Shown here: positions 45,873-63,706 of the stretch, one piece after another | Layout of the letters: each line of letters starts with the position of its first letter | Numbering within the stretch: the first letter of the stretch is position 1 | Assembly (NCBI GenBank): GCA_964013405.1 | Contig: CAXGWI010000005.1 | Span: forward strand, 3,411-67,410 | Length of the DNA: 64,000 nucleotides | Direction: 5' to 3' | Origin: an uncultured Myxococcales bacterium | GTDB taxonomy: Bacteria > Myxococcota > UBA4151 | Translations under genes and position numbers: made by a program | The notes under the pieces: generated by a model | Database searches by the model: none | Told to the model about the DNA's origin: nothing | Seen by the model: only the letters and a program-made list of their open reading frames with translations

Positions 45873-46790
45873 ATGTCCATACGAAGCAAAGTGATCTGGA
45901 TGAACGGGGAACTCGTTCCTTACGACGAAGCCAACGTTCATATCCTCTCCCACACCCTGCATTATGGCTTGGGCTTGTTTGAAGGAATTCGCAGTTATGC
46001 CCAAGAGGGTGGTGGCGGCGGCGTCTTTCATTTGGATGCCCACTTGGATCGCCTCTACGACAGTGCCAAGATGTGCCACATCCAAGTGCCGGTTGCCAAA
46101 GAGGCGTTGCGCCAAGCCTGTCTGGAGACCCTGCGGGCCAACGACTTCGATGAAGCCTATATTCGACCCCTCATCCACTTAGGCCACGGGGCCATGGGCC
46201 TTGGAGCTCGTAGCAATCCCGTCCACGTGAGCGTGGCCACTTGGGAGTGGGGGGCCTATCTCGGCGCCGAAGGTCTAGAAAAAGGGATCAGCGTGGGGAC
46301 CTCCTCCTTTGCTCGCCACGCGGTGGGTTCGACCCTGCAGCGAGCCAAGGTCGTCGGCCACTACGTGAACTCGATCCTCGCTCGCTATGAAGCCAACGAT
46401 AATGGCTTCGACGAGGCGGTGATGCTCGACGCCACCGGCCTGGTGGCCGAGGGCACCGGCGAAAACATCTTCGCCATCAAAAACGGTGTGGTGAAGACCC
46501 CATCCGTTACCAATATTCTCGCCGGGATCACCCGCCGGACCGCGATCCAGATGTTGGAGCACCTCGGTTACACGGTGCAAGAGACCTTGTTTGGTCGGGA
46601 CGCCCTTTATGTGGCCGATGAGGTCTTCATGACCGGGACCGCTGCTGAGATCACGCCGGTGCGGGAAGTGGACCGGCGCCCGGTCGGTGCGGGGCAGCGG
46701 GGCCCGATCACCGAGGCCTTGCAGTCTCTCTATGCCGAGGGTGTTCGGGGTCGGGTCGACTGGATGCGGCCCATGATTACGACCTACTGA
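45873..46790 (+). CDS. ilvE: Branched-chain amino acid aminotransferase (PLP fold type IV)
   Basis: IWMNGELVPYDEANVHILSHTLHYGLGLFEGIRSY. The EGxGxNxF-type motif AEGTGENIFAIKNG. The track ORF starts at 45843. Confidence 0.85.
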   Translation: MSIRSKVIWMNGELVPYDEANVHILSHTLHYGLGLFEGIRSYAQEGGGGGVFHLDAHLDRLYDSAKMCHIQVPVAKEALRQACLETLRANDFDEAYIRPLIHLGHGAMGLGARSNPVHVSVATWEWGAYLGAEGLEKGISVGTSSFARHAVGSTLQRAKVVGHYVNSILARYEANDNGFDEAVMLDATGLVAEGTGENIFAIKNGVVKTPSVTNILAGITRRTAIQMLEHLGYTVQETLFGRDALYVADEVFMTGTAAEITPVREVDRRPVGAGQRGPITEALQSLYAEGVRGRVDWMRPMITTY

Positions 46791-49366
46791 TGGCTCGCTG
46801 GACGCTGATCGCCTGGCTCCTGTGTGGTGCGTGCGCTGCCTGTGAAGAAGAGCCGGTTCAAAATTCGATTGAGTTGAGCCAGGGCTCAACACGAGTGGTG
46901 GCGACATTCTCACCCTTTTCGCTCCAGGTTTTCGAGGGCGATCGCTTGGTGGGGCGGACCGCCGAGCGCGGTTGTCCAGCCCTTAGCTTGGCCTTGAAAG
47001 AGGGGACTTCTGCCGAACGTTTCCATGCCCCGGAAGAGCCAACGGATGACCTGACTTGGCTTGAGAGCGTCGATGCGGAGCGACAAGAAGACGGCAGTCT
47101 CCTCATCCCACTCAAGGGCGAACTCGAAGGGGAGAGCGCCCGACTCAGCCTCGCCCCGGGCCCAGAGGGCTTTGTCGACATCGACATTCAATTCACAGCG
47201 CCTCCCGAACAAATCGCCATGAATCGAATCTGCTGGCAGTTACGGGAGGGCGAGCACGTGGTCGGTGCCGGTGAACGCTTCGACGGTGTGGATCTCTTGG
47301 GCCGAGTGGTGCCCTTATATTTTGCCGCACCTCGAAACTACGCGTCCTCCACCAACGAGTCCCATGCACCGGTCCCGTTCTTCGCCACCACGGGGGGAAT
47401 GGCCGTGCTGACGGAGACCGAGCGGGTGGGCGCCTATGATGTGGGCGCCACCGATGCCGATCACCTGCGGGCCCTCTTCCATGGCGACCAGTTGCCCTTG
47501 CGCATCCGGGCCGGTCACATCCTCGATAATGCCGCGGCCCATGCTCGACGGATGGGCCTGCCCCCCAAACCACCCCGCTGGGTCCTTGCTCCCCAACAGT
47601 GGCGTAACGAACATGCGGTGACGGTGCGTAACGGTGAGGTCGTCTCCACCGGTCAGGATCGGGTTTTGGCCGATGCCCGTAAGCTTCGGGAGTTGGAGAT
47701 TCCCGGCAGCCTCATTTGGATCGATGCGCCTTGGTCGACGGGTCACAATACCTTTGAGTGGAATCGGGTTCAGTTCCCCGATCCCGATGCCATGTTGGCC
47801 GAACTGGAAGCATTGGGTTTCAACGCCATCGTCTGGGCTACAGAGCATATTAATACCTCTGACGATTCGGACCAGCAGGTTGGTATGCCCATCGAGGGAA
47901 GCCGGGAACTTTACGACCGCTTTGCTGAGGAGGGCTGGTTGGTCGAGGCACCGGATGGCCAGCCATTTCGCTTTCAATGGGGTCGGGGCTTTGGTGGTCA
48001 TGTAGACTTCTCCAATCCCGATGCGGTGGCTGCTTATCAGGACCTTGTTCGCCCTGTGCTTGAGCAGGGGATTCGAGGATTTAAGTTGGATTATGGCGAG
48101 ACCATGCGGGCGGACCTGCTCGGCATGGACAACCGAGCTGTCACCTTTCACGATGGGGCGGGCTCAGAGATTCACCACACTCGGTACAGTCGACTCTTTC
48201 ATGAGGCGATGATCGGGGTTTTGAAAGAGGTTCACCCGGACGATTGGTATGTAATCACTCGGACCGGGGGGATTTACGACACAAAGAATGGAATTACGCT
48301 CTGGCCTGGTGACTTAGACAATGACTTCCGGCGAGCCGGTGAGGTGGAAGAGGATGGACGCTTGAGCGTCGGCGGACTGCCGGCTGCAGTCAGTGCTCAT
48401 TTGAGCGCCTCCATGAGTGGCTATCCCCTCTATGGCAGCGACATCGGTGGTTACCGAGGGGGGCCCTCCAACACAGAGGTTCTCCTGCGATGGTCTCAGT
48501 TCGGCGCCCTCTCTACAGTGATGCAGTTGGGCGGCGGCGGCCGGGGCGACACGACCCATAATCCTTGGGATGAGAATCTCTATGATACCGAGATCGCCGT
48601 GCCGATCTACCGGACCTATTCTCAACTGCACATGCGACTGATGCCCACCATCGAAGGCCTGATCGACCGGGCGGTCACCGATGGAAGCCCACCGCTGGTG
48701 CCAGTGGGTGTTGCCGCCGGAGAAGTGGAGGCTGCTTGGGCGGACCAAGAGAGTTATCTCTTTGGGCCGGACCTTCTGGTGGCACCGGTGGTGGAAGCAA
48801 GCACCGAGCGCCGGCTGTTTGCGCCCAGTGGGCAATGGTTCAGTTGGTGGGATGACAGCGTGATTGAGGGCGGTCGGGCCTATGTGGTGGCAACACCTCT
48901 GGAGACGATGCCGATCTATCAGCGGGGAGGCAGCCTGCTGGCGATGACCGATCCCCGTCTCCGCACCGTTCTGCCCTATGCTGACGAAGATCTAGACCGT
49001 TATGGGAAGACCCTGTGGTTACGGGTGGTCCCCGGCCTCGCCGGCAACAAAAGTTGGCGCTTCGATGGAGCCTGGGGAGCCAGCGCTGGGCAGGGCAGCG
49101 TGACTGCCAGCCAGGTCACGACGGGGGCTCAGACAAGCATCAGCGTGAATCGATCCCAGCGGGGACGGACCGTCGTCGAACTGCGACTGCGTCCAGACAC
49201 CGGACCTGATGCCGGGGCCCAGGTGACCGCGGCGGGGGCGACGGTTCCCGAGGTGGCGGAAGACGACTTTTTGGACTGCGTCGCGCCCTGCATCGCTCGG
49301 GGCGATAACCACCTGTTGATCGCCGTCGATGGGGAGCGTCCACAGATTCAGGTGGGTCGTCCCTAG
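46790..49366 (+). CDS. Glycoside hydrolase family 31-like protein (alpha-glucosidase/alpha-xylosidase fold)
   Basis: Signal with Cys-rich leader. IRGFKLDYGETM matches the GH31 nucleophile block (FKTDFGE in YicI). YGSDIGGYRG matches the acid/base block (GADIxGF). The N-terminal WxDMNE block is degenerate (LIWIDAPW). Confidence 0.55.
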   Translation: MARWTLIAWLLCGACAACEEEPVQNSIELSQGSTRVVATFSPFSLQVFEGDRLVGRTAERGCPALSLALKEGTSAERFHAPEEPTDDLTWLESVDAERQEDGSLLIPLKGELEGESARLSLAPGPEGFVDIDIQFTAPPEQIAMNRICWQLREGEHVVGAGERFDGVDLLGRVVPLYFAAPRNYASSTNESHAPVPFFATTGGMAVLTETERVGAYDVGATDADHLRALFHGDQLPLRIRAGHILDNAAAHARRMGLPPKPPRWVLAPQQWRNEHAVTVRNGEVVSTGQDRVLADARKLRELEIPGSLIWIDAPWSTGHNTFEWNRVQFPDPDAMLAELEALGFNAIVWATEHINTSDDSDQQVGMPIEGSRELYDRFAEEGWLVEAPDGQPFRFQWGRGFGGHVDFSNPDAVAAYQDLVRPVLEQGIRGFKLDYGETMRADLLGMDNRAVTFHDGAGSEIHHTRYSRLFHEAMIGVLKEVHPDDWYVITRTGGIYDTKNGITLWPGDLDNDFRRAGEVEEDGRLSVGGLPAAVSAHLSASMSGYPLYGSDIGGYRGGPSNTEVLLRWSQFGALSTVMQLGGGGRGDTTHNPWDENLYDTEIAVPIYRTYSQLHMRLMPTIEGLIDRAVTDGSPPLVPVGVAAGEVEAAWADQESYLFGPDLLVAPVVEASTERRLFAPSGQWFSWWDDSVIEGGRAYVVATPLETMPIYQRGGSLLAMTDPRLRTVLPYADEDLDRYGKTLWLRVVPGLAGNKSWRFDGAWGASAGQGSVTASQVTTGAQTSISVNRSQRGRTVVELRLRPDTGPDAGAQVTAAGATVPEVAEDDFLDCVAPCIARGDNHLLIAVDGERPQIQVGRP

Positions 49367-49378
49367 GCCACCACTGCC

Positions 49379-50782
49379 GTGCTCTTCAACTCGCTTATCT
49401 TTCTTCTCTTTGCGGCGGTATTTTACGCCCTCTGGCTCGGTCCATTTCGCCACCGTTCGCCCCTGTTTCGTCAGGGCGTCTTGGTGGTCTTTTCTCTGGT
49501 TTTTTACGGCTGGTGGAAATGGGCCTACATCGGCTTGATTCTGGCCAGTGGGCTTATCGATTACACTGCGGCCCTGGCGATGAAACGCTGGCCGGCTAGC
49601 CGGCGCTGGGCCCTTTTCGCCTCGATTCTGGGCAACCTGGGCATTCTTGCAGCCTTCAAATACGCGGGCTTCCTGGCTGAGAATCTCGATCTGTTGGGCA
49701 AAAGCATCGGCCAGGACTGGGGGGTTCAAGGGGCCTTGCCCAGTTTGCTGGACACCCTGCCGGTCGGCATTAGCTTTTATACCTTTCAGTCCATGAGTTA
49801 CACCATTGATGTTTACCGTGGTCGCTTAGAACCCACGAGAAATATCGTTGGTTTCTTTGCTTATCTTAGCCTTTTCCCCCAGCTCGTGGCCGGGCCCATC
49901 GTTCGGGCTAGCAACCTCCTGCCACAAGTCCTGTTGCTGCCAAGCCCCCGACCGGAACAAGTGCGTGAGGGCTTCATTTTGGTCCTGTCGGGCTTCGTTA
50001 AAAAGGTCGTTCTAGCAGACCAACTTGCCCCTTATGTGGAGACGGCATTTGCCGGCGGTTCAACCACCGGGTCCCCCTTATATTGGTGGCTGGTCACTAT
50101 GATGTTTGCCGTGCAGATTTACGGTGATTTCAGTGGCTATACAGACATCGCTCGAGGCCTGGGCAAATGGATGGGTTTCGACTTTGATGTGAACTTCAAC
50201 CACCCCTATCTGGCCCGTAGCTTGAGGGACTTCTGGCGCCGCTGGCACATCAGCCTTTCCACCTGGTTTAGAGACTACGTCTACATTCCATTGGGGGGAT
50301 CCCGGCGGGGCGTCCTTTGGGGGATTGGTGCCATGGCGATCACCATGGTGGTCAGCGGTCTTTGGCACGGGGCCGCTTGGACCTTCGTGGCTTGGGGAGC
50401 GATTCATGCGCTGGTGCTCGCGGTGGAGCGCCTCGGTGCCCTCGAACGGCGACTGCCGCCGGTGCTCGTTCGCAGCTACACCCTGCTCGCGGTGCTGTTC
50501 GCTTGGGTGATGTTTCGAGCCGAGTCGATGGCCCAGGCTCAAGGCATCTGCGCCCGCATGCTCGGCTTGGGGGCGGAGCAGACGCCTTGGGGTCATCCGA
50601 TTTTTGGTCTCTTTCCCCTCAGCGTCCTCTTGGTTTTTGTCGCCTGGGAAGTAGCCGTGGCCCGACAGTGGCATCGCCCGCTGTTTCGCGACCGGCTCCT
50701 GCCCTGGACCCTGGCTGTCTTCGCCTTGATGGCCGTCTTTCTTCGTGGGCCGTCCGCCCAGTTTATCTACTTTCAGTTCTAG
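49379..50782 (+). CDS. MBOAT-family membrane O-acyltransferase (AlgI/PatA/DltB-like)
   Basis: Multi-TM protein. The conserved MBOAT histidine region FWRRWHISLSTWFRDYVYIPLGG is present. Confidence 0.85.
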   Translation: MLFNSLIFLLFAAVFYALWLGPFRHRSPLFRQGVLVVFSLVFYGWWKWAYIGLILASGLIDYTAALAMKRWPASRRWALFASILGNLGILAAFKYAGFLAENLDLLGKSIGQDWGVQGALPSLLDTLPVGISFYTFQSMSYTIDVYRGRLEPTRNIVGFFAYLSLFPQLVAGPIVRASNLLPQVLLLPSPRPEQVREGFILVLSGFVKKVVLADQLAPYVETAFAGGSTTGSPLYWWLVTMMFAVQIYGDFSGYTDIARGLGKWMGFDFDVNFNHPYLARSLRDFWRRWHISLSTWFRDYVYIPLGGSRRGVLWGIGAMAITMVVSGLWHGAAWTFVAWGAIHALVLAVERLGALERRLPPVLVRSYTLLAVLFAWVMFRAESMAQAQGICARMLGLGAEQTPWGHPIFGLFPLSVLLVFVAWEVAVARQWHRPLFRDRLLPWTLAVFALMAVFLRGPSAQFIYFQF

Positions 50783-50795
50783 GCAGGGGGAGTTG

Positions 50796-51737
50796 ATGAA
50801 GCGCTTGGTATGGCCGGTGGTGTTGAGCTTGGTTGTGGCCGGTGGGCTGCGGACACTCACCGGCGCTATGGGCGACAGTCGAACGGTGGATAGCAGGACT
50901 TTTTGGCGATTAAAAACCCACCCGGGGCAGCAGTTTGATGGCCTGCTGGTGGGGGATTCGAGGACCTACCGGGGCTTGTCACCGACGGTCATGGAGCCCT
51001 TTTTATCGGGCCGGCGCGTGCATAACTTGGGCTATTCCTCGGGGCGCCTTTCCCGGGATCTCTTCGACCATGCTGAGGGCTTGTTGAATCCGGAGGCGCA
51101 GCCACCATTCATCGTCCTGGGGCTCAGTGCCCATGCATTATCGAAGGCGAAGCAGGGGCCGGAAAACCCCCAGTTGGCTCGCTATCTTGATCTGGGTGAT
51201 TGGGAGCAGCGCCTCGACTTATGGGCCCGACCGCTCACCCAGCACGTTTTTAGACCGCTGGTCGCCGACCCTACCGTCGCGCTGCAAATGGCCCGGCAGG
51301 GGGAAGGCCGGGTTCGCTATCACCAGCGCTTTGACGAGCGGGGCTTTGTCGCCTCAATCACCGAGCCTGTGGATCCGCAGCGTGCTTTGAAGAGCTACGG
51401 CAAAACCCTTCGGGAGCACCCTGTGGATCCAGGGGTGGTTCGAGTCCTTATCGACCGGGTGGCCCGTTGGCATAAAGCGGGGGTGAGCGTCTATATTCTG
51501 CGTTTGCCGGTGCCCGCGGCGATGGATGACCTTGAGCGGGGCTTAGGTGGCTTTGATGAGCGGCAGCTGCGAATGGATTTAGCCCGGGCCGGTGGCCATT
51601 GGCTGGGGCTCGAGACGAAGGATCTGAGCACCTACGATGGGAGTCATTTGGATCCGGAATCCGCCCGCCGGCTCTCTCAGCGGGTGGCCGAGGCCATCGC
51701 CACCGACCTGTCCTTGGATCCGGCCCCCAAGCCCTAG
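50796..51737 (+). CDS. Periplasmic SGNH/DltD/AlgJ-like partner of the MBOAT protein (putative O-acetyltransferase/esterase)
   Basis: GGGGGAG lies before ATG 50796. N-terminal anchor/signal. Block I LLVGDSRTYRG (GDS). Block V YDGSHLD (DxxH). Confidence 0.5.
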   Translation: MKRLVWPVVLSLVVAGGLRTLTGAMGDSRTVDSRTFWRLKTHPGQQFDGLLVGDSRTYRGLSPTVMEPFLSGRRVHNLGYSSGRLSRDLFDHAEGLLNPEAQPPFIVLGLSAHALSKAKQGPENPQLARYLDLGDWEQRLDLWARPLTQHVFRPLVADPTVALQMARQGEGRVRYHQRFDERGFVASITEPVDPQRALKSYGKTLREHPVDPGVVRVLIDRVARWHKAGVSVYILRLPVPAAMDDLERGLGGFDERQLRMDLARAGGHWLGLETKDLSTYDGSHLDPESARRLSQRVAEAIATDLSLDPAPKP

Positions 51738-51780: not shown

Positions 51781-54204
51781 TCATTCGCCATGGGCCGAAC
51801 GGGTCTCAGCGCTAATCGCATGATCCCAAAGAAGCACCGCGTCGAGATCGCCGGTAAAGGCTCGCTCTAAGCAGGCTTCATCGGCGCCACAGCCACCCAT
51901 GCGTAGAGGTGCTACATTGTTCCTGAGGGTGCCTGTTGCTGGGGCAAAGCCCGCATTCTGGCCCCGCACAAACAAGCTGAGACCCTGGCCGTCATAGACC
52001 GTGCAGAGTTGATTCCACTGGCCGAAGGAGACCGGCATGGTGCCATCGACACGGACCTGACCTTCAAGGGTGGCGATGCTCACCCAGGGGCGTTGATTAC
52101 TGGGTTCGATGGCCAGGCGATAGGAGCCCCCCTTCTCGACCACGATAAAGCGCTCTCGCTCCTGCTGGGCCAAGGGGCGCACCCAAGCGCAAAGGGAGAA
52201 GGTATCAAAGCCATCGAGTCGGTCATGATCGGCGATCTCCACATAAGCTCCATCTTGGAAAGCCAAGGCGCCGGCAGGCACTTGGCGCCGATCCGCCACC
52301 ATGGCCGCACCCTGGTTGATGCCGTGGTGCTCATTGCCAGAGGAATCGAGAATATCACCGTCCATGGGATAGCAGGCCATGCTGCCGAGACAGGCGGCCC
52401 CTGAACGGCAGGTGTTCGAACAAAAGTCATTGTCCTCGTCGTTACCATCATCGCAGTCCTCAACACCGAACCAGATGATCCCATCGCCACAGGTCGCCCT
52501 TAGACAAGCATCGGTGCAGGCGTCTTCGTCGCCGTCCTGGCCGTCATCACATTCCTCGCCGGCGAAATCATCGAGGATATTGTCGCCACAGACCGGCTCG
52601 CTGCAGTCTCGGCGGCAGGCATCTCGACCTTCTAGGTTGCCATCGTCGCAGGCTTCGTCGTGGTCGACGACGCCATCGCCACACGCCGGGCGTCGGCAAT
52701 CGGGACGACAGCCGTCTGTAGGATCTTCGTTACCATCATCGCATTCTTCATCGTGATCGACGCGACCGTTGCCACAGGCTGCTAACTGACAGGAGTTGCG
52801 ACAGCCATCGCTGTCCACGTCATTGCCATCGTCACAGCCCTCGTAGCCGAGTTCACCAGCGCCCCGATTGGTGCGAAGAATTCCATCGCCACACCGGGCC
52901 CGTCGACAGTCTCGGGTGCAGTCATCGCCATCTTCGTCATTGCCATCATCGCATTCTTCGATCCCGGCCCGCACGATGTTGTCGCCGCAGCGGGCGGCGA
53001 CGCAGTCAGTGGTGCAGCCATCGCCGTCGACGCCGTTGCCATCGTCGCATTCTTCGACGCCGGCCCGGACATGGCCGTCGCCGCAGCGGGGCAACTCGCA
53101 GCGAGGCGTACATTCATCGCCGCCTTCCCGGTTGCCGTCATCGCAGAACTCCCGGCCCGGGTGGAGAATTCCATCGCCACATTCGGCTTCTGCACACTGG
53201 TTGGTGCAGTCATCGGTGTTGACTCGATTGCCATCATCACAGGCTTCGTAGCCGATCTCGTTGTCGTTCAGGTCCTGCCGCACGAGCCCATCGCCACAGC
53301 GGGCAGAGATGCAGTTGTTGAGGCAGCCGTCGAAGGGGTCATCGTTGCCATCATCGCATTCTTCCCCTGGTCCTCGTAGACCGTCGCCACAGGCCTCGAG
53401 TCGGCAGGTGAATGAGCAGCCATCGCCGCTAAAGGTGTTGCCGTCGTCGCATTCCTCGAAGCCCCGTTCACCGGCCTCGATGTCCGTCCGTAGAAAGCCA
53501 TCGCCACATCGGGCCGGGCTGCAATCGTTCAAGCAGCCATCCACATTGGTTAAGTTGCCATCATCACAGCGTTCACCTTCGTCGATCACCCCGTCACCGC
53601 AGGGGGGCAATTGACAGGCCTCATTGCAGTCCTCGCCCCCGTCACATCCTTCACCGGGTTGCACCGTGCCATCGCCGCAGCGGGCCCGCTGGCACTGACC
53701 GTTGCAAAGGTCTTCCTCGATGAGATTTCCGTCATCGCATTGTTCGCTGCCCGGGCTGCCCTCGTCCAAATCCAGTCGCTGGATCCCGTCGCCGCAGCGG
53801 GCCACAAGGCATCGATGGGTGCAGGCGTCGTGGGCCTCCGCATTGCCATCGTCGCAGGCCTCGTAATCTGGCTCGCCTTCAACCCGGTCCAGCCGCAGGA
53901 CACCATCCCCGCAACGGGCGATGTGGCAACTGTTCAGGCAGTCGTCCGCGTCGTTGCTGTTGCCATCGTCGCAGGCTTCAAAGCCTTCATCGCCCTCGAG
54001 AAGGTCGCCTCGGCGAATCCCATCGCCACAGCGAGCCCGCTGGCACTGGTCCGTGCAAGCATCGTCGGCCACCGTGTTGTCGTCGTCACATTCTTCGCCG
54101 GAATCCAGCAGTCCATCACCACAGACGGGGTCGGGGTCGAGGACGGCGGGAGCCACCTCACAGCCCATGGCGATGAAACCCAAAATCAGAGAGATACGAG
54201 CCAT
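51781..54204 (-). CDS. Lipoprotein with about 14 Myxococcus-type cysteine-rich repeats (CGDG...EECDDGN...C, TIGR02232-like) and a C-terminal LamG/concanavalin-like domain
   Basis: GAGGAGG lies 8 nt before ATG 54204, inside the end of the upstream kinase gene. Repeats such as [39 protein letters not shown]. The C-terminal ~200 aa is LamG-like (FSLCAWVRP...GSYRLAIEP...). Confidence 0.7.
52407..54126. repeat. Degenerate ~105-bp coding repeat array (about 14 units) of the CGDG/ECDDGN cysteine-rich module
   Basis: Periodic tcgccgcagcgggc / gtcatcgcattcttc type segments on the plus strand correspond to the repeated protein modules. Confidence 0.55.
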
Positions 54205-54207
54205 CGA

Positions 54208-56829
54208 TTACACCTCCTCCGTTGCTGCGAGGAGCGATTCGATGGCGGCGCTGAGTTCTTCCGCCCGGTAGGGCTTTGAAATATAGCCATCCATGCCTGC
54301 ATTTAAGCAGGCTTCTCGGTCCTCCGCTTCTGTCCTTGCGGTGACGGCTAGAATCGGCAGGCGTCGTGTAGCGCCGGCCTCCGCTTCCCAGCGGCGGATG
54401 TCACGGCTGAGGTCCAGGCCGCTCTCACGGGCCAACATGACGTCCATAAGCACCAAGTTCACGTCGGTGCCCTCGCCCTTTTGCAGGGCCCCCAGACGGT
54501 CGTTAACCTCGGCACCGGTGGCGACCAACTCCACCGTGAGGCCAAGTTTTTCCAACATGGCTTGGGCGACCAGCTGATTCACAGGGTCGTCTTCAACCAC
54601 CAAGACGAGGGCCGAGAGTGCCGCTTGTGGGTCGGCCTCTTCGTCGCTGAGGACAGGCGGTGCTTCCGTTTCAATGCCGGCCTCGTCCACGACGACGGAG
54701 AAGCCAAAGCGAGTAATACCTGCACCTTGATCGGAGAAGAAAGCCTCTCCACCCATACGCTCCGCCAAGAGTTTGAGGGCCAACAGGTCAATGCCGCACC
54801 AGCGGGCAGCCCCGGGATCGGAACGAGACCCCAGCACACCAAAGACGTTCTCTTGTTGATCGGGGGGGATGGCTGGACCCGCGTCTGATACCTCGATCCG
54901 GACAGTCCACTGACCACCCGCCCTGTGGGCCTCTCCCCGGACCGCAATGGTCCCGGTCTCGGTGTAATGGAGACTGCGACGAAGGAGACAGTTGATCATC
55001 TGGCGCAGCCGCAGGTCGTCAACGATCCCCTGCAGTTCGTGTGGGATCATGAGATCGAGAGCGAGATCGAGCCCTTTGGTCTTGGCCTCGTTGTGATGGA
55101 GTTCGACCACCGCAGAAAGGAGTTCGGCAAGGCGCACCGTGCGCTGGTTAAACTCCAGTGCGTCCGCCTCTAGATGAACCAAGTCCTGAACATCGTAGAT
55201 GGTCTCCATGATGCGTTGGGCTTGGCTCTGCAACTGCTGGGCCGAGGCCCTCAATTGGATGGGCTGGCCTCCCTGGTCAGCCACCAATTGACTCAAGCCG
55301 ATCACCGAATGAAGAGGGCCTCGAACCTCTTGGTTAAGTCCGACCATGAGTTGGTTGCGGGCCTCGGCCTGCCGGCGCAGGTCATCATTTCGTGCCCGAG
55401 ATGCTGTCAGTTGAGCTTCGGTGGCTAACAACTGGTCTTCGATGGTCTTCAGTTCGCTGTTGAGGCTGTCTTTGGCCTGGACCGTCGACGTAACGTCATG
55501 GGCGATAAAGATGGCCCCCTGACCATCGCCGAGGGAGATGAGTGTCGCTTGCAGTGTCCGTTCGCCGTCGCAGTGGAGCAGTCCCGTCCAGTTGAGCGAC
55601 TTCCCCGCTGCCGACGGCCCTGGCAGTTCATGGTCTTTGGCCTCTACGACCTCGCTCAGGGGCACACCGACCAAGGCATCGGGCGACGCTCTACCTACGA
55701 GTTCGGCCAGTGGTGTGCCGGTGATGAGAATTTGAAGTTGGTCGTCGACAATGGCGGAAGGAAGGGCTCGAACGACCGCCTTCTGCCGCTCTTTCAGGGT
55801 GGTGAAACCGCTGGCATCAATGCAGTTGATCAGGCTGATCTCATCGTTGATGCTCTGCCGGCTGAGGATGAGATGGTGACCATCATGCTCCCACTGCAGA
55901 GGCTCGGCACCTTCGAGGAAGCCATCGACGACCTCGGCGCCAAGACCTCGCTGGTCTAAGACTTCGTGCAGGGATTGACCGCTCTCCATCGGGCCGAGCA
56001 ACCGTGTCGCCTCCGGATTGGTGGCGACGATGTAGTTGCGCTCAAGAAGGATGCAGCCTTCCCCCAGGCTCTCTAGAAGGCTTTGGACGATCGGGAGGCG
56101 GTGGGCGCCGCCGGCGAGGGTGCGGCTGGCCTGCTGGAGTGAATCCGTCGCTTCCGCGTCCTCACCAAGAAGGGTGGAAAGACCATCTGAAACCCAGAGC
56201 AGGCGTCCGCCTACCTTCCGTCCTGTCCGCCAGGCGATGAACAGGGTCAGCAGGACACAGATGCCCACAACCAGGGCGACTCGGTCCCGATACATTTCAA
56301 TTTGATCGGCGGTGAGTTGATGCCGCTTTTGCGTGTCACTACGGTAGCTTTGGATCAATCCGAGCAGATCTTGGTACAGCAAGATTTGGGTTGGCTCCCA
56401 GCGCTTCGTTAGGTCCGATCGAGCCCGGTCGAACTGCTGCTCTCTGGCCAGTTCCACGATGGCGTAGCTCGCCTTTTCAAGGGCGCCAAAATGGGTCTCT
56501 GCGGCTTGCAGATGGAGTTTGTGCGCTTCGGATTCCGCCAGGGTCTTTAGACATTCTAGCAAGCCAGTTCGTTGGCTTTGCATGCCTTCCAAGCGACTGG
56601 CGAACTGCTTGGGTTCCAGGGGGACGACCAGGCGCCGAAGGGAGTGGTCCCAATCCACAAGTCGGCGCTCACATTTAAGGATCTGCAGCGCTTGGTCCCA
56701 GTCTTCTGGCGCTTCGCCTTTGTGAATGTTTTGGGTCTTATGAAAGGCGTAGAGAGAGAAACCCCCGGCGGCGAGGACCAAGACCACGAGAAAGGTAAAG
56801 CCCAGTTGCAGGTGTGAACGCAGTTTCAT
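54208..56829 (-). CDS. Hybrid sensor histidine kinase (TM sensor, PAS, HisKA, HATPase, C-terminal REC)
   Basis: H-box NQEVRGPLHSVIGLSQLV. HATPase region. C-terminal REC LVLVVEDDPVNQLVAQAMLEKLG...LVLMDVMLARESGLD...DGYISKP. Confidence 0.85.
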   Translation of the reverse strand: MKLRSHLQLGFTFLVVLVLAAGGFSLYAFHKTQNIHKGEAPEDWDQALQILKCERRLVDWDHSLRRLVVPLEPKQFASRLEGMQSQRTGLLECLKTLAESEAHKLHLQAAETHFGALEKASYAIVELAREQQFDRARSDLTKRWEPTQILLYQDLLGLIQSYRSDTQKRHQLTADQIEMYRDRVALVVGICVLLTLFIAWRTGRKVGGRLLWVSDGLSTLLGEDAEATDSLQQASRTLAGGAHRLPIVQSLLESLGEGCILLERNYIVATNPEATRLLGPMESGQSLHEVLDQRGLGAEVVDGFLEGAEPLQWEHDGHHLILSRQSINDEISLINCIDASGFTTLKERQKAVVRALPSAIVDDQLQILITGTPLAELVGRASPDALVGVPLSEVVEAKDHELPGPSAAGKSLNWTGLLHCDGERTLQATLISLGDGQGAIFIAHDVTSTVQAKDSLNSELKTIEDQLLATEAQLTASRARNDDLRRQAEARNQLMVGLNQEVRGPLHSVIGLSQLVADQGGQPIQLRASAQQLQSQAQRIMETIYDVQDLVHLEADALEFNQRTVRLAELLSAVVELHHNEAKTKGLDLALDLMIPHELQGIVDDLRLRQMINCLLRRSLHYTETGTIAVRGEAHRAGGQWTVRIEVSDAGPAIPPDQQENVFGVLGSRSDPGAARWCGIDLLALKLLAERMGGEAFFSDQGAGITRFGFSVVVDEAGIETEAPPVLSDEEADPQAALSALVLVVEDDPVNQLVAQAMLEKLGLTVELVATGAEVNDRLGALQKGEGTDVNLVLMDVMLARESGLDLSRDIRRWEAEAGATRRLPILAVTARTEAEDREACLNAGMDGYISKPYRAEELSAAIESLLAATEEV

Positions 56830-56864: not shown

Positions 56865-59258
56865 CTAGACCAGATTCTGCGTTGTTTGGGTTAACACTTT
56901 GAGTTTCGGTTCCAGCTGGGCGTAGACTTGATGGATCTGGTGGATTTCCCCGTGCACATCGACTCGGCCCGCTCTCCCCGCTTGCTCAAGGAGTTTCGCA
57001 AGTTCCGAGAATCGAAGGGCGCCGACCTGGGCAGAAGAGCTCTTGAGGCGGTGGGCCAGGCCCCAGAGTTGCTCTGCGTCTTCTTCTGAAACCGCTTCGT
57101 CAAGTTCCGCAAGGAGACCTGGTGTTTGGGCCAGATAGGTTTCGATGAGGGTGGAGAAGACATGGCCTAGCGTGTCCCGTTGGTAAGCCAGTTGCTCCTC
57201 GTCGAGCTCACTTTCCAGCGCATTTGGAACGGCCGGTGAGCTGGGATCTCCAAGGGGCGCTTTGCCGGTGATCCCTTGGATGATTTGGTGCAGGTCAGCT
57301 TGTCTCACAGGCTTGGCGAGGTAGTCATCCATTCCGGCTGCGAGGCAGTCGGACTTTGTGCCGGGCATGACGTTGGCCGTCAGGGCAATGATTGGGCAGG
57401 CGCCCCGCCCGCTGTCCCGTTCCCATTGGCGAATCTCTTCGGTGGCGTGGAGGCCGTCCAAGATGGGCATATGGAGATCCATCAGGACGAGGTCGTAGGT
57501 TTCCGACTTCAGCGCGCGGACCGCTTGTTCCCCGTCGGAAAGAACGCTGCAACGCTCGCCAAGGTTCTCGATCATGGCTTGGACGACCACCTGATTGACC
57601 GGGTCGTCTTCGACCACAAGAACATGGATGCCCAACGGTGCAGAGTCAGCCTCGGGAGGGACCGTTTGCGACGTCGGTGGTGAGCTTTCGAGATCGCTGA
57701 CTTGAAAGGGAAGTTCGACCCAGAAGAGCGAGCCCCTCGTCTCTGGGCTGTCCAGGCCGATCGTACCGCCCATGAGTTCACAGATCTCCTTCGAGATCGC
57801 AAGGCCCAGCCCTGTGCCGCCGAAGGCTCGAGTGTTGGAGTCGTCGACCTGGGAAAATCGCTCGAAGAGATGATGAGCCCTTTCCGGCCCAATGCCGATG
57901 CCTGTGTCCTCCACTTCAAAGCGAATCGTCCGTGTGGCTCCGGAGCGTTCATGGGCTTGGCAGCGTAGGACGATTCGGCCCGCTTCCGTAAACTTGATGG
58001 CATTGCCCAGGAGATTGACGAGAATCTGACGAACCCGGTCGGCGTCGGCCCGTAGCCAGGTGGCCCCCCTGAGATTTGAGTCCAATGAGAACTCGAGCCC
58101 TTTGCTGCGGGCCGTATGTCCATAGAGGTCCATGAGATCGCTGAGGAGTTCGCTGAGATCGAAACGTTCTTGCCGCAGGCGAACCGCGCCCGCTTCCACC
58201 TGACTGATGTCGAGAACATCGTCCACCAGACGCAGGAGTCGCTCGCCAGAGCGGCTGAGGAGTTGAAGGTGCTCCATCTGGCTTGGCAACAGGTGATGAT
58301 TGCCGATCAACTCAGCGAGGCCAAGAATACCATTGAGAGGTGTCCTAAACTCATGGCTCATGTTGGCCAAGAATTGACTCTTGGCTCGATTCGCCGCCTG
58401 GGCCTCTGTCATCGACTTCGCCAGTTGTTGTTCGATGAGCTTTTGCTCGGTGACGTTGCTGATCACGATCAAGATTTTATCGTCGAAGGGGATGCCGTCC
58501 ACTTGGATGATCAACTTGAGGGAGCCCGAGCCAACCTGCTCCACCTCCAACTCGTGGCGAGAGAAGGCTTCACGCCGGCGGATCTTCTCCTGGAGGGTGG
58601 TCGGGAGGGAGAGGCGCTCAAGAATCTCACTCACCGGGCGCCCCCGCTCCGTCTCGAACAGCCCCTCGAACATGCGACGGAAGCCATCATTGACGAGGAC
58701 GATCCGATCCGCTTGGACCACGACGAGTCCTTGGGGAACCGCACTGAGGATGCGTTGGTTCAAAGCCTCCGAGTCGGCGAGCTCATCGGAGGTCGCAGAC
58801 AGGTTGGCTTCGAGGGCTCGTTGCTTTTGCCGCTCCTGGTCAATGGCCCGGAAGTAGCCTTTGAGTTTGTTGATGAGTTGGCGCTCGTCCACCGGCTTGA
58901 AGAGGTAATCGACCGCACCGAGACCGAAACCTTCCGCCACATCTTCTTCTCGCTTTGCTGCGGCGGTGAGAAAGATGATCGGTACATTGGCGTCTCGTTT
59001 GCGCTGTTTGATCATGTTGGCGGTTTCAAAGCCGTCTAGGCCCGGCATTTGAACATCGAGAATGATCACATCGACCGGCCGCTCGAGTAGGACAGCGAGG
59101 CCGGCCATGCCACTGGAGGCCTGAACGACTTCGACGCCGAGGTGCTCATCAAGCAAGGCTTCCAGGGTGAACAGGTTGTTCGGGTTATCGTCGACAATCA
59201 ATACCGAGAATTGGGTCATATCGAGTTCGGTCAACGGGATCTCCTCTGTACAAACCAA
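56865..59258 (-). CDS. Hybrid histidine kinase with phosphorelay architecture (REC-PAS-HisKA-HATPase-REC-HPt)
   Basis: N-terminal REC VLIVDDNPNN...IILDVQMPGLDGFE. H-box LANMSHEFRTPLNGILG. Second REC HVLVVEDDPVNQVV...LVLMDLHMPILDG. The C-terminal HPt-like segment LWGLAHRLKSSSAQVGA carries the conserved His. Confidence 0.85.
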   Translation of the reverse strand: MVCTEEIPLTELDMTQFSVLIVDDNPNNLFTLEALLDEHLGVEVVQASSGMAGLAVLLERPVDVIILDVQMPGLDGFETANMIKQRKRDANVPIIFLTAAAKREEDVAEGFGLGAVDYLFKPVDERQLINKLKGYFRAIDQERQKQRALEANLSATSDELADSEALNQRILSAVPQGLVVVQADRIVLVNDGFRRMFEGLFETERGRPVSEILERLSLPTTLQEKIRRREAFSRHELEVEQVGSGSLKLIIQVDGIPFDDKILIVISNVTEQKLIEQQLAKSMTEAQAANRAKSQFLANMSHEFRTPLNGILGLAELIGNHHLLPSQMEHLQLLSRSGERLLRLVDDVLDISQVEAGAVRLRQERFDLSELLSDLMDLYGHTARSKGLEFSLDSNLRGATWLRADADRVRQILVNLLGNAIKFTEAGRIVLRCQAHERSGATRTIRFEVEDTGIGIGPERAHHLFERFSQVDDSNTRAFGGTGLGLAISKEICELMGGTIGLDSPETRGSLFWVELPFQVSDLESSPPTSQTVPPEADSAPLGIHVLVVEDDPVNQVVVQAMIENLGERCSVLSDGEQAVRALKSETYDLVLMDLHMPILDGLHATEEIRQWERDSGRGACPIIALTANVMPGTKSDCLAAGMDDYLAKPVRQADLHQIIQGITGKAPLGDPSSPAVPNALESELDEEQLAYQRDTLGHVFSTLIETYLAQTPGLLAELDEAVSEEDAEQLWGLAHRLKSSSAQVGALRFSELAKLLEQAGRAGRVDVHGEIHQIHQVYAQLEPKLKVLTQTTQNLV

Positions 59259-59292: not shown

Positions 59293-60609
59293 TCATTTCA
59301 GCCACCAACCCAGTGTGACAAGGCCCGCAAGCCCGAGAAGGCCGATGAGACTCCGCAGCGTCGCCGTCTGCCGCTGCGCTCGGTCCACGGCCTGTTGATA
59401 GGGGATATTGGAGAAGCTCACCATGCCATAGAGGGGGTGAAAGCCTGGCAGGATACGTTCCAGGGCCTGCTCGATCTTCTTTTGCATCAGGAACAGGGGC
59501 GAGGCCACTGCCGCCCGCATTTCGTGGTAGTGGTCGAGGGCGAGCTGCCGGATGGCAAAGCCATGGGGACAGCGCTCGGCACTGAAACGACTCAAGGCCT
59601 CAGCTTGGGGATGTTGGGTCAACAAATCGTCCAGGAGGTTGGCGCTCTCAAAGGCTGCGTTCATGCCTTGGCCATAAAAAGGCACCACTGCGTGGGCCGC
59701 ATCGCCGATGAGAACCACCCGTTCACCATAGTGGTAAGGGCTGCATTTGATCGTGGCGAGACCGCTATGGGGGTTGCTGAAAAAGTCGTCGATCAGCGTT
59801 GGCATGAGGGGGACGGCATCGGCGAACTGCTCATCGAAAAATCGCTGCACATCAGCGGGCTCTTTGAGCCGCTCGAAACACCAGTCGGTCTCGGACTTGA
59901 ACGGTAAAAACAGGGTCACAGTGAAGCTCTTGTCCAGATTGGGCAGGGCGATGAGCATGTAGTCTTGGCGGGGCCAGATGTGGAGCCCTTTGGGGTCGAT
60001 GGCGAAGTTGCCATCCGCGGCCGGCGGGATGGACAGTTCCACGTAACCTGAGTCGATCCACGTTTGGTCGTAGTTCAATTGACTCTGTTTCATCACCTGG
60101 TCGCGAACCGCAGAAAAGGCGCCATCGGCGCCAATCACCAAACTGGAATCATGGCTCTTCCGGTCACCAGAAGGGTCTTGAAAGGTCACCCTTCCCGTCT
60201 CTGCTTCGAGGGCAACGCAGGCTTGATCGAAGTGAAATGGAACGCCCGCAGCCTCCGCTTCGTTCATGAGGAGTGCGTTGAGATCTCGACGGCTAACGCT
60301 GCGTATCGCTTGGTGCGCTTGACCGTAGGCTTGGAAGTTGAGCGCGCCCCCACGGTCATGGAGAATTCGGCCGGGCATCGGCAGGCTTTGCTCCAAGACG
60401 GTCTCTTGCAGACCCACTTTCTCAAGAGCCGTCAGCCCGCGGGTTGAAATAGCCAGATTGATGGATCGTCCGGCTGGAATATCCACTCGCCGTAGATCCG
60501 GGCGCCGCTCCCAAACCTCGACCCGCTGGCCTCGACGGGCCAAGTAGAGGGCCATTAATGATCCGGCCAGGCCGGCACCGACGATGTGAACGGGCGGCGA
60601 GGGGGTCAC
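59293..60609 (-). CDS. kmo: Kynurenine 3-monooxygenase (FAD-dependent, C-terminal membrane helix)
   Basis: IVGAGLAGSLMALYLARRG. GADGAFSAVR. HIWPRQDYMLIALPNLDKSFTVTLFLPF is nearly identical to eukaryotic KMO. The GTG start 60609 overlaps the kynU stop (GTGA). The track ORF begins 12 codons earlier. Confidence 0.88.
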   Translation of the reverse strand: MTPSPPVHIVGAGLAGSLMALYLARRGQRVEVWERRPDLRRVDIPAGRSINLAISTRGLTALEKVGLQETVLEQSLPMPGRILHDRGGALNFQAYGQAHQAIRSVSRRDLNALLMNEAEAAGVPFHFDQACVALEAETGRVTFQDPSGDRKSHDSSLVIGADGAFSAVRDQVMKQSQLNYDQTWIDSGYVELSIPPAADGNFAIDPKGLHIWPRQDYMLIALPNLDKSFTVTLFLPFKSETDWCFERLKEPADVQRFFDEQFADAVPLMPTLIDDFFSNPHSGLATIKCSPYHYGERVVLIGDAAHAVVPFYGQGMNAAFESANLLDDLLTQHPQAEALSRFSAERCPHGFAIRQLALDHYHEMRAAVASPLFLMQKKIEQALERILPGFHPLYGMVSFSNIPYQQAVDRAQRQTATLRSLIGLLGLAGLVTLGWWLK

Positions 60610-61847
60610 GAGAGCCGTTCCCGGAGAATCTCGGCCACTCGCCACAACTCATGATAGCGGTTGTAGAGGGGAGCAGGAGCCATTCGGATCACGTCGGGAT
60701 GGCGGAAATCACAGTAGACGCCAGCCCCTGCGAGGGCCTGATGGAGGCCTGGTCCGTCGCCGTGGATGCGTAGGCTGATCTGCGATCCTCGCCGATGGGC
60801 TTCTGTTGGGCTGATGATCTCCACTCGGCCGGTTGGTAATCGGTCCAGTTGGGAAAGAAAGAAGTCGGTCAGCGAGAGGCTCTTTTGTCGTAGCGCATCC
60901 ATCCCCGCTTCGTCGTGGATGGCCAAGGCTGCTCGGTGGCAGGCCATGCTCATGACGGGGGCGTTTGAAAGCTGCCATGCGCCGGCACCGGCCTGGGCCT
61001 CGAAGGCGCCCATTTTAAAGCGCGTCTCCGGATGGGTGCCCCACCAACCGTGAAAGCGGGGAAGGTCGGCATTTTTGTGGCGGTCGTGGACGAAAAGACC
61101 GGCCACACCGCCCGGACCCGAGTTGAGGTATTTGTAGGAGCACCAGGCGGCGAAATCCACGCCCCAGTCGTGGAGTTGCAAGGGCACGTTGCCGGCCGCA
61201 TGGGCGAGGTCAAAGCCAACCATTGCGCCGGCTTTGTGGGCTGCTTTCGCAATCCGGGCCATGTCGAAGAGTTGGCCGGTGTAATAATGGACGCCACCGA
61301 TCATGACCAAGGCCACCCGGTGGCCATTGGTTTCTAGGTAGGCTTCGATCTCCGCCTCATCGACGAGGTCGCTCTCACCGCCCAAGCTAACGATGGCGTC
61401 GTCGGGGCCAAAGCCATGGAAGCGGGCCTGGCTATCGACAGCGTAGCGATCGGAAGGAAAGGCGCCAGCTTCGGTGAGAATCTGGAACCGTTCGGCCGTC
61501 GGGCGGTAAAACGAGACCATGGCCAAATGCAGGTTATTGGTCAGCGAGCCCATCGAGACCACTTCGTGGGGCTTGGCGCCAACGAGTCGCCCAAGGGGCT
61601 CGCAGAGATCTTCGTGATAACTGTACCAGGGGTACTTGGCCTCAAAGTGCCCCTCCACCGCGAGGCGGGCCCAATCGTCGAGCTCCTGTTCGAGGGCAGC
61701 TCGGGTGGTTCGGGGCTGAAGACCCAAGGAGTTACCGCAGAGGTAAATGGCTTCCTCGCCGGTTTTGGTCCGGGGCAAAAGGAAGCGACTCCGGAAAGAG
61801 GCGAGGGGGTCGAGACGGTCTAAGTCCAGCGCTTGAGATTCGCTCAT
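60606..61847 (-). CDS. kynU: Kynureninase (PLP-dependent)
   Basis: YLCGNSLGLQP. FAAWCSYKYLNSGPGGVAGLFVH carries the Lys-PLP site. 413 aa. Confidence 0.88.
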   Translation of the reverse strand: MSESQALDLDRLDPLASFRSRFLLPRTKTGEEAIYLCGNSLGLQPRTTRAALEQELDDWARLAVEGHFEAKYPWYSYHEDLCEPLGRLVGAKPHEVVSMGSLTNNLHLAMVSFYRPTAERFQILTEAGAFPSDRYAVDSQARFHGFGPDDAIVSLGGESDLVDEAEIEAYLETNGHRVALVMIGGVHYYTGQLFDMARIAKAAHKAGAMVGFDLAHAAGNVPLQLHDWGVDFAAWCSYKYLNSGPGGVAGLFVHDRHKNADLPRFHGWWGTHPETRFKMGAFEAQAGAGAWQLSNAPVMSMACHRAALAIHDEAGMDALRQKSLSLTDFFLSQLDRLPTGRVEIISPTEAHRRGSQISLRIHGDGPGLHQALAGAGVYCDFRHPDVIRMAPAPLYNRYHELWRVAEILRERLS

Positions 61848-62656
61848 CGCTCAAGCTCCAAAGAAAAGAGAAGGGGCCTGGAAGGGGCGGCGTCACAAAG
61901 CATTCGAGGCACCTGAAGGTCCAGCAGATAAAGCCCATCGGGAATCCCCTGAGGAACGAGGGCTAATTCGGTGAGCGTGCGTTGATGGGCTGCCGCTCGC
62001 CCCCCCTTGGGAAGTTGCCAGAAAATACGGTGGTTCGGCAGGGTGCCACCATCCTCATGGCGATCGAGGCTGGGCAGATCGAGCACCAAGTGATCGACGC
62101 CCCGGGCAACGATCAATTCAATGGCCTCGTGGCTCAGGTAGGGGGCCGGTTGTTGGCCATAGTCTCGGCGGGCTTTACCCTTGTCGGGCAGTGTCCGTAT
62201 CACCAGGCTTTGTACCCCTGGGAGCGTGGGCCAGTTGGCCTGGAGCGCCGCTGCGCTGACGATCCAGTCCTCGGCGGCTTCAAAACCGTTGTATGACTCG
62301 TTCCCATCGCTAAACAATTCGGTCTGCACTGACACCAATTGGCAAACGAGCAGTTGGTTCGGCGCTGCTTCGGCAATCGTCGCCTCGTTGCGGTCGAGAT
62401 GGGCGGCGCTCTCGGTGTGGGTCATCGATCCGTGGGGGGTGAGTTCCAGGGTGCTGCAGTTGCAACTCCCTCCCCGGGCCGTATCACCGACGAAGCCGCC
62501 GCCCTCCACGGCTGTGAGACGGGGTTGGGGGAGGTCGTAGAAGCTGGGGTTGCGCCCGTTGAAGTCCACGGGCAGCGCCAGATCGATACCGGCCGCCAAG
62601 TCGGCTCGATAGGTCGAGCCCTCCAGTGTGACTCGAGCTTCGATCAACTGCGGCAC
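61844..62656 (-). CDS. kynB: Cyclase-family protein, putative kynurenine formamidase (arylformamidase)
   Basis: TPHGSMTHTESAAHLD resembles the HxGTHxDxPxH cyclase/KynB motif. The operon context supports the call. Confidence 0.6.
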   Translation of the reverse strand: MPQLIEARVTLEGSTYRADLAAGIDLALPVDFNGRNPSFYDLPQPRLTAVEGGGFVGDTARGGSCNCSTLELTPHGSMTHTESAAHLDRNEATIAEAAPNQLLVCQLVSVQTELFSDGNESYNGFEAAEDWIVSAAALQANWPTLPGVQSLVIRTLPDKGKARRDYGQQPAPYLSHEAIELIVARGVDHLVLDLPSLDRHEDGGTLPNHRIFWQLPKGGRAAAHQRTLTELALVPQGIPDGLYLLDLQVPRMLCDAAPSRPLLFSLELER

Positions 62657-63702: not shown

Positions 63703-63706
63703 GGGC

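Follow-up and report, generated by a model that had tools for sequence, protein, structure and literature searches.

A putative DUF4215/LamG lipoprotein gene tightly joined to a pseudokinase-like gene in an uncultured Myxococcales bacterium

The window analysed here is a 64,000-nucleotide (nt) stretch of contig CAXGWI010000005.1 (assembly GCA_964013405.1) from an uncultured Myxococcales bacterium, with a G+C content of 61.6%. On its minus strand, a gene for a predicted lipoprotein of 807 amino acids (aa), built of DUF4215/TIGR02232 cysteine repeats and a laminin-G-like (LamG) domain, follows the gene for a membrane protein resembling a hybrid kinase, which in turn follows the gene for a soluble hybrid histidine kinase. 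The same order of kinase, predicted pseudokinase and 807-aa lipoprotein recurs in each of the three lineages known for this rare pseudokinase. We give about even chances to the reading that the lipoprotein gene forms the final cistron in a conserved signalling unit of three genes and that its product would act as the extracytoplasmic partner of the pseudokinase. A putative functional partnership of the lipoprotein with the signalling genes is supported by the conserved gene order. To our knowledge, no member of the DUF4215/TIGR02232 family has a known function, and the locus ties one orthologue group of this family to a conserved, tightly coupled genomic partner.

The three genes and the ribosome-binding site at their last junction are as follows.

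56865..59234, minus strand: soluble hybrid histidine kinase gene, REC-PAS-HisKA-HATPase_c-REC-Hpt (Pfam 185.9/72.5/103.5/46.2 bits)
54208..56829, minus strand: membrane-bound hybrid-kinase-like pseudokinase gene, 873 aa (Pfam, hydropathy and alignments)
54213..54220, minus strand: Shine-Dalgarno (SD) sequence GGAGGAGG of the lipoprotein gene, inside the T-E-E-V codons of the upstream gene and 8 nt from the ATG
51781..54204, minus strand: lipoprotein precursor gene (DUF4215/TIGR02232 repeats and LamG), 807 aa, an ATG-started open reading frame (ORF) with its stop codon at 51781-51783

Conserved gene order and the pseudokinase-lipoprotein junction

A word-indexed search of 5.8 billion proteins returned a single full-length relative of the pseudokinase (P0001). 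When its N-terminal 460 aa were searched exhaustively with HMMER against 1.84 billion representatives, only its own cluster and P0232 came up, and a metagenome scan added only L081, a 3-kb contig of the population of L001. L001 (GCA_036154515.1, annotated as Myxococcota bacterium) encodes the kinase, the pseudokinase and the 807-aa protein, followed by convergent genes for a 312-aa protein, an MBOAT protein and a GH31 protein, as in the window. L087 (Logan run DRR683870) encodes the Hpt tail of the kinase, the pseudokinase and an 807-aa DUF4215/LamG protein, followed by a Wzy_C-domain gene and a 232-aa gene, both lacking counterparts in the window and L001. Because this downstream flank of L087 differs, the conserved block ends with the lipoprotein gene.

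The lipoproteins of L001 and L087 were 88% and 78% identical to that of the window, and both were exactly 807 aa long and aligned without gaps. The kinase was 76% identical in L001, and the Hpt tail in L087 was 59% identical. An earlier note on this DNA, made from the letters of the window, had named conservation of the kinase-type/repeat-protein adjacency as a check; the adjacency was conserved in 3 of 3 pseudokinase lineages. The idea that it is confined to near-identical genomes was overturned by P0232 and L087.

The rate of nonsynonymous change (dN) of the lipoprotein was 0.07 against L001 and 0.16 against L087, compared with 0.21 and 0.51 for the pseudokinase. Synonymous sites were saturated in all comparisons, with a synonymous rate (dS) above 1.6 or not computable and a third-position identity of 0.33-0.49; therefore, the conservation does not stem from recent common ancestry or transfer. 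With a third-position identity of 0.46 and a dS above 2.8, recent horizontal transfer was rejected as the source of the high lipoprotein identity. The lipoprotein diverges about 3-fold more slowly than the pseudokinase (78% versus 45% identity), and by these estimates it is under strong purifying selection.

The upstream ORF (54208..56829) terminates in ...ACG GAG GAG GTG TAA, with the TAA at 54210-54208, and is followed by TCG and then by the ATG at 54204. The stop of the upstream gene and the start of the lipoprotein gene are thus 3 nt apart, as the earlier note had it, and the ORF at 51781-54204 on the minus strand was confirmed from the sequence. The same holds for its claim that codons of the upstream gene form the SD sequence, which lies at 54220-54213 within T-E-E-V. 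The AGGAGG motif is not enriched in the window (44 occurrences on both strands versus 49 expected from shuffles), and its chance of standing at SD distance from a given start is p ~0.002.

In L001 and L081, a TAG stop directly abuts a GTG start (0 nt) and AGGAGG lies 8 nt upstream, and in L087 the start and stop overlap by 4 nt (ATGA) with GAGG 7 nt upstream. The spacings of +3, 0 and -4 nt, each with an SD-like motif 7-8 nt upstream, are those of translationally coupled pairs, in which stop and start overlap or lie a few nt apart and the SD sequence is in the upstream ORF. The junctions of the window and L001 are collinear (54205-54210 versus L001:5392-5400): the TAA of the window corresponds to GAA (Glu) in L001, and its TCG spacer corresponds to the TAG stop of L001. 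Therefore, the stop codon has shifted by one codon without an insertion or deletion. A read-through fusion across the stop codon was also considered, since both ORFs are in frame in the window and in L001, yet it was rejected because the junctions are collinear with the stop moved by one codon and the overlap in L087 lies in another frame.

No terminator-like site was found between the pseudokinase and lipoprotein genes, and the region holds fewer such sites than its shuffles. Because of the 3-nt gap, the SD sequence inside the upstream ORF, the lack of a terminator-like site and the tight junctions in two diverged loci (L001/L081 and L087), it is very likely that at least the pseudokinase and lipoprotein genes, and maybe all three, are co-transcribed, and that the lipoprotein is translated by ribosomes leaving the pseudokinase ORF. 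The co-transcription implied by the earlier note is thereby well supported, although indirectly.

In the predicted mRNA fold of 54150-54280 (minus strand), the SD sequence GGAGGAGG pairs with an upstream CUCCUC and the start-codon region pairs with CCAUCGA. The minimum free energy of this hairpin was -49.9 kcal/mol (z = -2.0), and 6 of 200 shuffles were equally good. If the hairpin forms, the lipoprotein would be translated only once ribosomes had opened the fold at the end of the pseudokinase ORF. In L001, the corresponding region showed no significant mRNA structure (z = -0.4), and an SD-sequestering hairpin was rejected as a conserved coupling device.

The upstream pseudokinase and the genuine kinase

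Three parts of the pseudokinase are referred to below.

56280-56739, minus strand: periplasmic region, aa 31-183, between the transmembrane segments TM1 and TM2
55312..55335, minus strand: degenerate H-box N499-Q500-E-V-R-G-P-L506, aligned to SHEFRTPL of the neighbouring kinase
54238..54606, minus strand: receiver domain, aa 742-864 (PF00072, 76 bits, cut-off 30.2)

The pseudokinase begins with TM1 (~aa 5-31), a periplasmic helical region of ~150 aa and TM2 (~aa 179-204), followed by two PAS-like stretches, a DHp/CA part and the receiver. Its Pfam scores were 26.1 bits for HisKA, which is under the cut-off of 26.9, 36.9 bits for HATPase_c and 76 bits for Response_reg. The catalytic residues were judged by alignment with the neighbouring kinase and by the residues invariant in 36 hybrid kinases. 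In the H-box, Q500 stands in place of the phospho-accepting His, which is H302 in the neighbouring kinase and invariant in the 36 kinases, and the sequence QEVRG lacks an E-x-x-T/N phosphatase motif. In the N-box, R618 replaces the Asn (N419 of the neighbouring kinase). The third Gly of G1 (G455) has become A653, and in G2 (GxGLGL) G483 is replaced by D681 and G485 is deleted, leaving CGIDL-L. The receiver, by contrast, keeps its acidic pocket (E746/D747/D748), the acceptor D796, T830 and K852, all of which are invariant in the three orthologues.

P0001 (70% identical) carries the degenerate motifs unchanged, with Q at the His position. In P0232 (45% identical), Arg replaces both the His and the Asn, G2 reads GGIDLTVL, and the D, T and K of the receiver are intact. 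Since both relatives share the dead motifs together with an intact receiver, the upstream protein is not decaying. The best-conserved parts were the DHp domain (69-86% identity) and the receiver (65-73%). By these alignments, the upstream gene evidently encodes a conserved pseudokinase with a working-looking receiver, one that fails the tests for a histidine kinase and passes those for a receiver. The hybrid kinase of the earlier note therefore stands as an architecture but not as a catalyst, because all three lineages have Q or R for the His, R for the N-box Asn and a broken G2. A conserved, dead, hybrid-kinase-like membrane protein with an intact receiver would join a short list of bacterial histidine pseudokinases.

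Neither Pfam nor the PDB gave a match to the periplasmic region. All three lineages share C53, C93 and the motifs P-x-DWDQA, KRWEP and LL-x-Q-x-L-x-GL unchanged, and this pattern suggests a disulfide-stabilised helical sensor of no recognised type.

The neighbouring kinase is fully canonical and carries the invariant H302, N419 and G1/G2 residues. No hydrophobic segment appeared in its hydropathy profile. Its likely start is the TTG at 59234, which follows GAGGAG, and 35 nt separate the kinase gene from the pseudokinase gene. A promoter-like match at 59321-59292 ahead of the kinase gene was set aside because it lies within conserved coding sequence, which makes its conservation in L001 uninformative.

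Immediately upstream of the signalling genes, in the same orientation, a complete-looking cluster for kynurenine/tryptophan degradation occupies 59293-63975 (minus strand) and runs past the window end (L002:1390-7537). It encodes RidA, FAA hydrolase, 3-hydroxyanthranilate dioxygenase, an ACMSD-like amidohydrolase, a cyclase/formamidase, kynureninase (419 bits) and a flavoprotein like kynurenine monooxygenase. The monooxygenase gene stops 58 nt short of the kinase start, and L001 shows the same adjacency, with a monooxygenase C-terminus that is 75% identical.

Anatomy and family of the lipoprotein

The lipoprotein gene was divided into three parts.

54160..54204, minus strand: signal peptide with lipobox, Cys15 being the predicted lipidated residue (PROSITE-type lipobox pattern)
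52405..54123, minus strand: 17 tandem four-Cys modules of 26-39 aa each, aa 28-600 (regular-expression count and Cys map)
51784..52266, minus strand: C-terminal LamG/pentraxin-like jelly roll, aa ~647-807 (PF13385 match, AlphaFold2 (AF2) and Foldseek)

The lipobox was sought with the pattern [^DERK]{6}[LIVMFWSTAG]{2}[LIVMFYSTAGCQ][AGS]C and with the rule of the PROSITE PS51257 type, namely a positively charged n-region, an uncharged h-region, [LIVMFYSTAGCQ]-[AGS]-C and the Cys at position 15-35. The N-terminus conforms to this rule with C15 and with R3 upstream, and aa 3-23 form the only hydrophobic segment of the protein. The pattern also fits both orthologues (FAFGC and MAAC) and two further DUF4215-LamG proteins. 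The Cys and the linker (E/D)VAP(A/S)VL(D/E)PDP are kept in the orthologues, whereas the h-region diverges. The mature protein begins with C-E-V-A-P-A-V in the window and C-D-V-A-P-S-V in L087, and the +2 residue is E, E and D across the three lineages. Such an acidic +2 residue would mean retention in the inner membrane under the Escherichia coli rule. In Myxococcus xanthus, a Lys at +2 marks inner-membrane lipoproteins and an Ala at +7 marks matrix lipoproteins (PMC3222651).

The repeats matched TIGR02232 (NCBIfam) with 280.2 bits in 15 stretches (cut-off 20.8) and DUF4215/PF13948 (Pfam) with 237.7 bits in 11 stretches (cut-off 27). Their consensus is CGDG-x(5-14)-E-x-CDDGN-x(4)-D-x-C-x(3)-C, and 68 Cys are in register over 17 units. 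The earlier note had recognised the Cys-repeat type (CGDG...EECDDGN) correctly, but its count of about 14 was too low, since direct counting with the expression CG[DN][GN]...C[D][DG][GD] gave 17. An alignment of 44 related sequences showed the same invariant columns. A short two-Cys linker (C605, C611) precedes the LamG domain, and the mature protein has 74 Cys in total. The laminin-G-like domain that the note had placed after the repeats is there: Laminin_G_3 (PF13385) matched aa 651-800 with 73.7 bits (cut-off 27.6).

The AF2 model of the LamG part had a predicted local distance difference test score (pLDDT) of 70-94. Its top Foldseek matches in the PDB were the pentraxin domain of PTX3, a SAP-like pentraxin of Limulus, the LamG-like domain of PAPP-A and the lectin-like Hc-N domain of a clostridial neurotoxin (E 5e-10 to 1e-8). 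The alignment of the LamG domain comprised only 6 sequences, and with only a 6-sequence alignment the repeats were left unmodelled (pLDDT < 50). When four units (aa 199-345) were modelled with a 44-segment alignment, the mean pLDDT was 83.7, and the model was almost without regular secondary structure, as would be expected of small disulfide-knotted modules. Searching the PDB by sequence gave no significant match to the repeats, the LamG domain or the N-terminus of the pseudokinase, and a homology search with the LamG domain alone returned only fragments of the same lineage. We hold with moderate confidence that the lipoprotein would be exported, lipidated at Cys15 and oxidised into an extended string of acidic modules with a predicted binding head.

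Between the window and L087, the four membrane-proximal units were the most variable (48-74% identity), units 5-17 were 62-97% identical and mostly above 80%, and the LamG domain was 76% identical. Against other family members, the identity of the repeats was 45-64%. Conservation among the orthologues is well above this family level, which argues that the repeat region is more than a spacer. In all three orthologues, each of the 17 repeats keeps its own identity and the copy number is unchanged; a fixed number of individually conserved units likewise argues against a mere spacer role.

The only solved structure with this repeat unit is that of human pappalysin-1 (PAPP-A; PDB 7ufg, 8a7d, 8d8o), at residues ~866-901 (CGDGIIQKDQGEQCDDMNKINGDGCSLFCRQE). 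The repeat profile matched the PAPP-A unit with E = 0.009, and Foldseek aligned 35-41 columns at 46-48% identity and a root-mean-square deviation of 1.3-1.8 A. PAPP-A has a LamG-like domain as well, which is among the best fold matches of the C-terminal domain of the lipoprotein. However, PAPP-A carries one unit inside a metalloprotease, whereas the lipoprotein has 17 tandem units and no protease domain, and the resemblance is at the level of modules only.

The DUF4215/TIGR02232 family is very large, with more than 7,500 matches. It counts thousands of members in Myxococcota and related uncultured bacteria and extends to eukaryotes, where human PAPP-A has a single unit and an adhesive protein of a diatom has twelve. 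A lipobox start was present in 20 of 35 sampled members, and the heads vary, including RCC1, FGE-sulfatase and right-handed beta-helix domains. P0110 and P0170 likewise show the order of lipoprotein signal, repeats and Laminin_G_3. By all tests run, the predicted product qualifies as an ordinary DUF4215/TIGR02232 and Laminin_G_3 protein, sharing with the family its four-Cys CGDG...CDDGN units and, with most relatives, the N-terminal lipoprotein signal. It differs in that the 807-aa orthologue group is unusually constrained (exact length, no insertions or deletions) and is always attached to the pseudokinase gene.

Full-text literature on DUF4215/TIGR02232 yielded only the adhesive-trail protein of a diatom, which bears 12 such repeats (bioRxiv 10.1101/2023.03.06.531300), and a repeat lipoprotein tied to a two-component module was not found described in it. 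A linkage scan with kinase and receiver hidden Markov models covered the same-strand adjacent genes of 78 DUF4215 loci from other genomes. In L070, a DUF4215 gene is followed after 73 nt by a histidine kinase gene on the same strand. In L026 (6445-15825), from an unrelated Myxococcales metagenome-assembled genome, two DUF4215 genes (563 and 1400 aa) begin 328 nt behind the genes for a classical kinase (570 aa) and an NtrC-like regulator (455 aa), again on the same strand. A general link between DUF4215 and two-component genes was rejected on this count of 2 in 78.

Possible roles of the lipoprotein and flanking genes

In the mechanism that we propose, the soluble hybrid kinase (REC-PAS-HK-REC-Hpt) would supply phosphoryl groups. 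The lipoprotein, once exported and lipid-anchored at Cys15, would be oxidised to form a chain of 17 acidic, disulfide-knotted modules with the LamG/pentraxin-like binding head at the distal end, and could serve as a co-sensor or ligand-capturing arm for the periplasmic domain of the pseudokinase. The pseudokinase might modulate the real kinase through its conserved DHp domain or by accepting phosphoryl groups on D796 of its receiver. We have low to moderate confidence that the lipoprotein works with the periplasmic region of the pseudokinase and that the pseudokinase acts on the soluble kinase. Physical contact between lipoprotein and pseudokinase, and the direction of signal flow, are speculative. 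The ligand-presenting or co-sensor role suggested in the earlier note is plausible but only inferred, and the interpretation given there is, as a whole, supported in part.

RcsF, NlpE (for CpxA), TorT (for TorS) and LuxP (for LuxQ) are accessory lipoproteins or periplasmic proteins of membrane sensors, and in the Rcs system RcsD, a kinase-like protein without catalytic activity, works beside the hybrid kinase RcsC. Genomic linkage to the sensor gene, which characterises accessory (third-component) proteins, was found here in 3 of 3 pseudokinase lineages, and the unit would be a newly composed example of the two-component systems that include auxiliary components and a pseudokinase. The lipoprotein has no sequence relationship to RcsF, NlpE, TorT or LuxP. 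In addition, and in contrast to systems of the Rcs type, the dead protein here bears a receiver and not an Hpt domain, the real kinase is soluble and Hpt-bearing, and the accessory protein consists of ~800 aa of repeats. We regard it as rather unlikely that the trio is a previously undescribed three-component phosphorelay, in which a long, disulfide-knotted DUF4215 stalk with a LamG/pentraxin-like head would capture a ligand of the envelope or the surroundings and act through a dead membrane receptor to gate the soluble Hpt-bearing kinase, with Rcs-like logic and unrelated parts. If that were true, it would be the first functional assignment within the very large DUF4215 family.

Among kinase-like proteins, RedE does not autophosphorylate and works in the RedCDEF relay of M. 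xanthus (PMC2755868), and PsmA and DivL are pseudokinases that act through protein contacts (PMC12963549). The pseudokinase of the window resembles RedE, DivL and PsmA, which are conserved, non-autophosphorylating histidine-kinase-like proteins in multi-protein signalling or scaffolding assemblies. They differ in that RedE keeps the phospho-accepting His, DivL has Tyr at this position, and PsmA is cytoplasmic and polarisome-bound; unlike the pseudokinase here, none of the three is reported with a coupled extracytoplasmic lipoprotein.

By analogy only, the lipoprotein also resembles TraA of M. xanthus, an anchored envelope protein whose Cys-rich repeats were proposed as a rigid stalk presenting a lectin-like head (PMC3325183). 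TraA, however, has TIGR04201 repeats (PMC3325183) and the opposite polarity, with an N-terminal PA14 head and a C-terminal MYXO-CTERM anchor, and it is paired with TraB and not with two-component proteins. No match to PA14, TIGR04201 or MYXO-CTERM was found in the lipoprotein at E <= 0.01 (Pfam, NCBIfam), and its C-terminus ends in the LamG domain. Membership among TraA-type receptors was therefore rejected, the repeats being TIGR02232 and none of the domains of TraA being matched.

Several points weigh against a signalling unit with the lipoprotein as its extracytoplasmic partner. The evidence, although consistent, is all genomic. The bacteria are uncultured and the clade of the three lineages is small, and vertical inheritance of an operon explains part of the conservation. 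Linkage to two-component genes is absent across the DUF4215 family: a same-strand neighbour of this kind occurred only in L026 and L070 among the 78 loci, and in none of the ~17 loci whose match reaches the LamG region. From the window to L087, the pseudokinase retains only 37% identity in its periplasmic region against 78% for the lipoprotein, and simple co-evolution of a tight interface predicts otherwise. No output response regulator is encoded nearby. Under the M. xanthus rules (PMC3222651), the lipoprotein has neither the +2 Lys of inner-membrane lipoproteins nor the +7 Ala of matrix lipoproteins.

The main rival explanation has an appreciable chance, somewhat short of even. It holds that the lipoprotein is co-expressed yet functionally independent, an envelope or surface adhesin or glycan-binding DUF4215 protein that would be an operon passenger or a cis-regulated product with no sensing role. 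This would agree with a large family that is mostly lipoprotein-like, carries many different heads and lacks a general two-component linkage, and with the 12-repeat adhesive-trail protein of the diatom (bioRxiv 10.1101/2023.03.06.531300). The block is flanked by envelope-glycan genes in the window (MBOAT/GH31) as well as in L087 (Wzy_C), and the periplasmic region of the pseudokinase has diverged far more than the lipoprotein. An independent protein is, however, at odds with a trio that stays joined, with junctions of -4 to +3 nt, while the flank beyond it changes, and with a lipoprotein gene attached to every known copy of a rare pseudokinase.

Two other alternatives concern the parts of the unit. 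The pseudokinase and the lipoprotein might form a structural or scaffolding complex of the envelope with little phosphotransfer, similar to PsmA or DivL, to which the real kinase would be loosely connected. PsmA functions without the need for an H-box or a receiver Asp (PMC12963549), and the pseudokinase has a degenerate CA domain and an H-box (QEVRG) that lacks the E-x-x-T/N motif. Nevertheless, the acidic pocket, D796, T830 and K852 of the receiver are conserved in the three lineages, and an Hpt-bearing kinase is always directly upstream; therefore, phosphotransfer to the receiver is argued to be retained, and we consider the scaffold improbable. Still less credible, to the point of being highly improbable, is that the adjacency is inconsequential and that the lipoprotein gene is expressed separately from its own promoter inside the pseudokinase gene. 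A sigma-70-like match does lie at 55022-54995 (minus strand) within that gene, although the region holds three such matches against 1.5 expected by chance. Separate expression is hard to reconcile with junctions of a 3-nt gap, a 0-nt gap and a 4-nt overlap, each with an internal SD sequence, in three lineages whose synonymous sites are saturated, nor is any terminator-like site present.

On the other side of the lipoprotein gene, a GH31 glycosidase, an MBOAT protein (DltB/AlgI-like O-acyltransferase) and a 313-aa signal-anchored protein without a family match are encoded at 46790-51737 on the plus strand and converge on it. This set resembles a polysaccharide O-acylation pair with a glycosidase. 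It is kept in L001 and L086, and a Wzy_C-domain gene is found instead in L087.

Elsewhere in the window, two neighbouring ORFs at 730-2151 and 2699-4687 (both plus strand) each contain a matrixin (peptidase M10) domain. Matrixin domains are uncommon in bacteria. Two long ORFs overlap on opposite strands at 6821-8125 (minus) and 6908-8179 (plus); the plus-strand ORF has no family match, and the minus-strand ORF has a receiver domain (E = 1e-16). The latter is probably the real gene of the two and is the sole other receiver-bearing ORF in the window.

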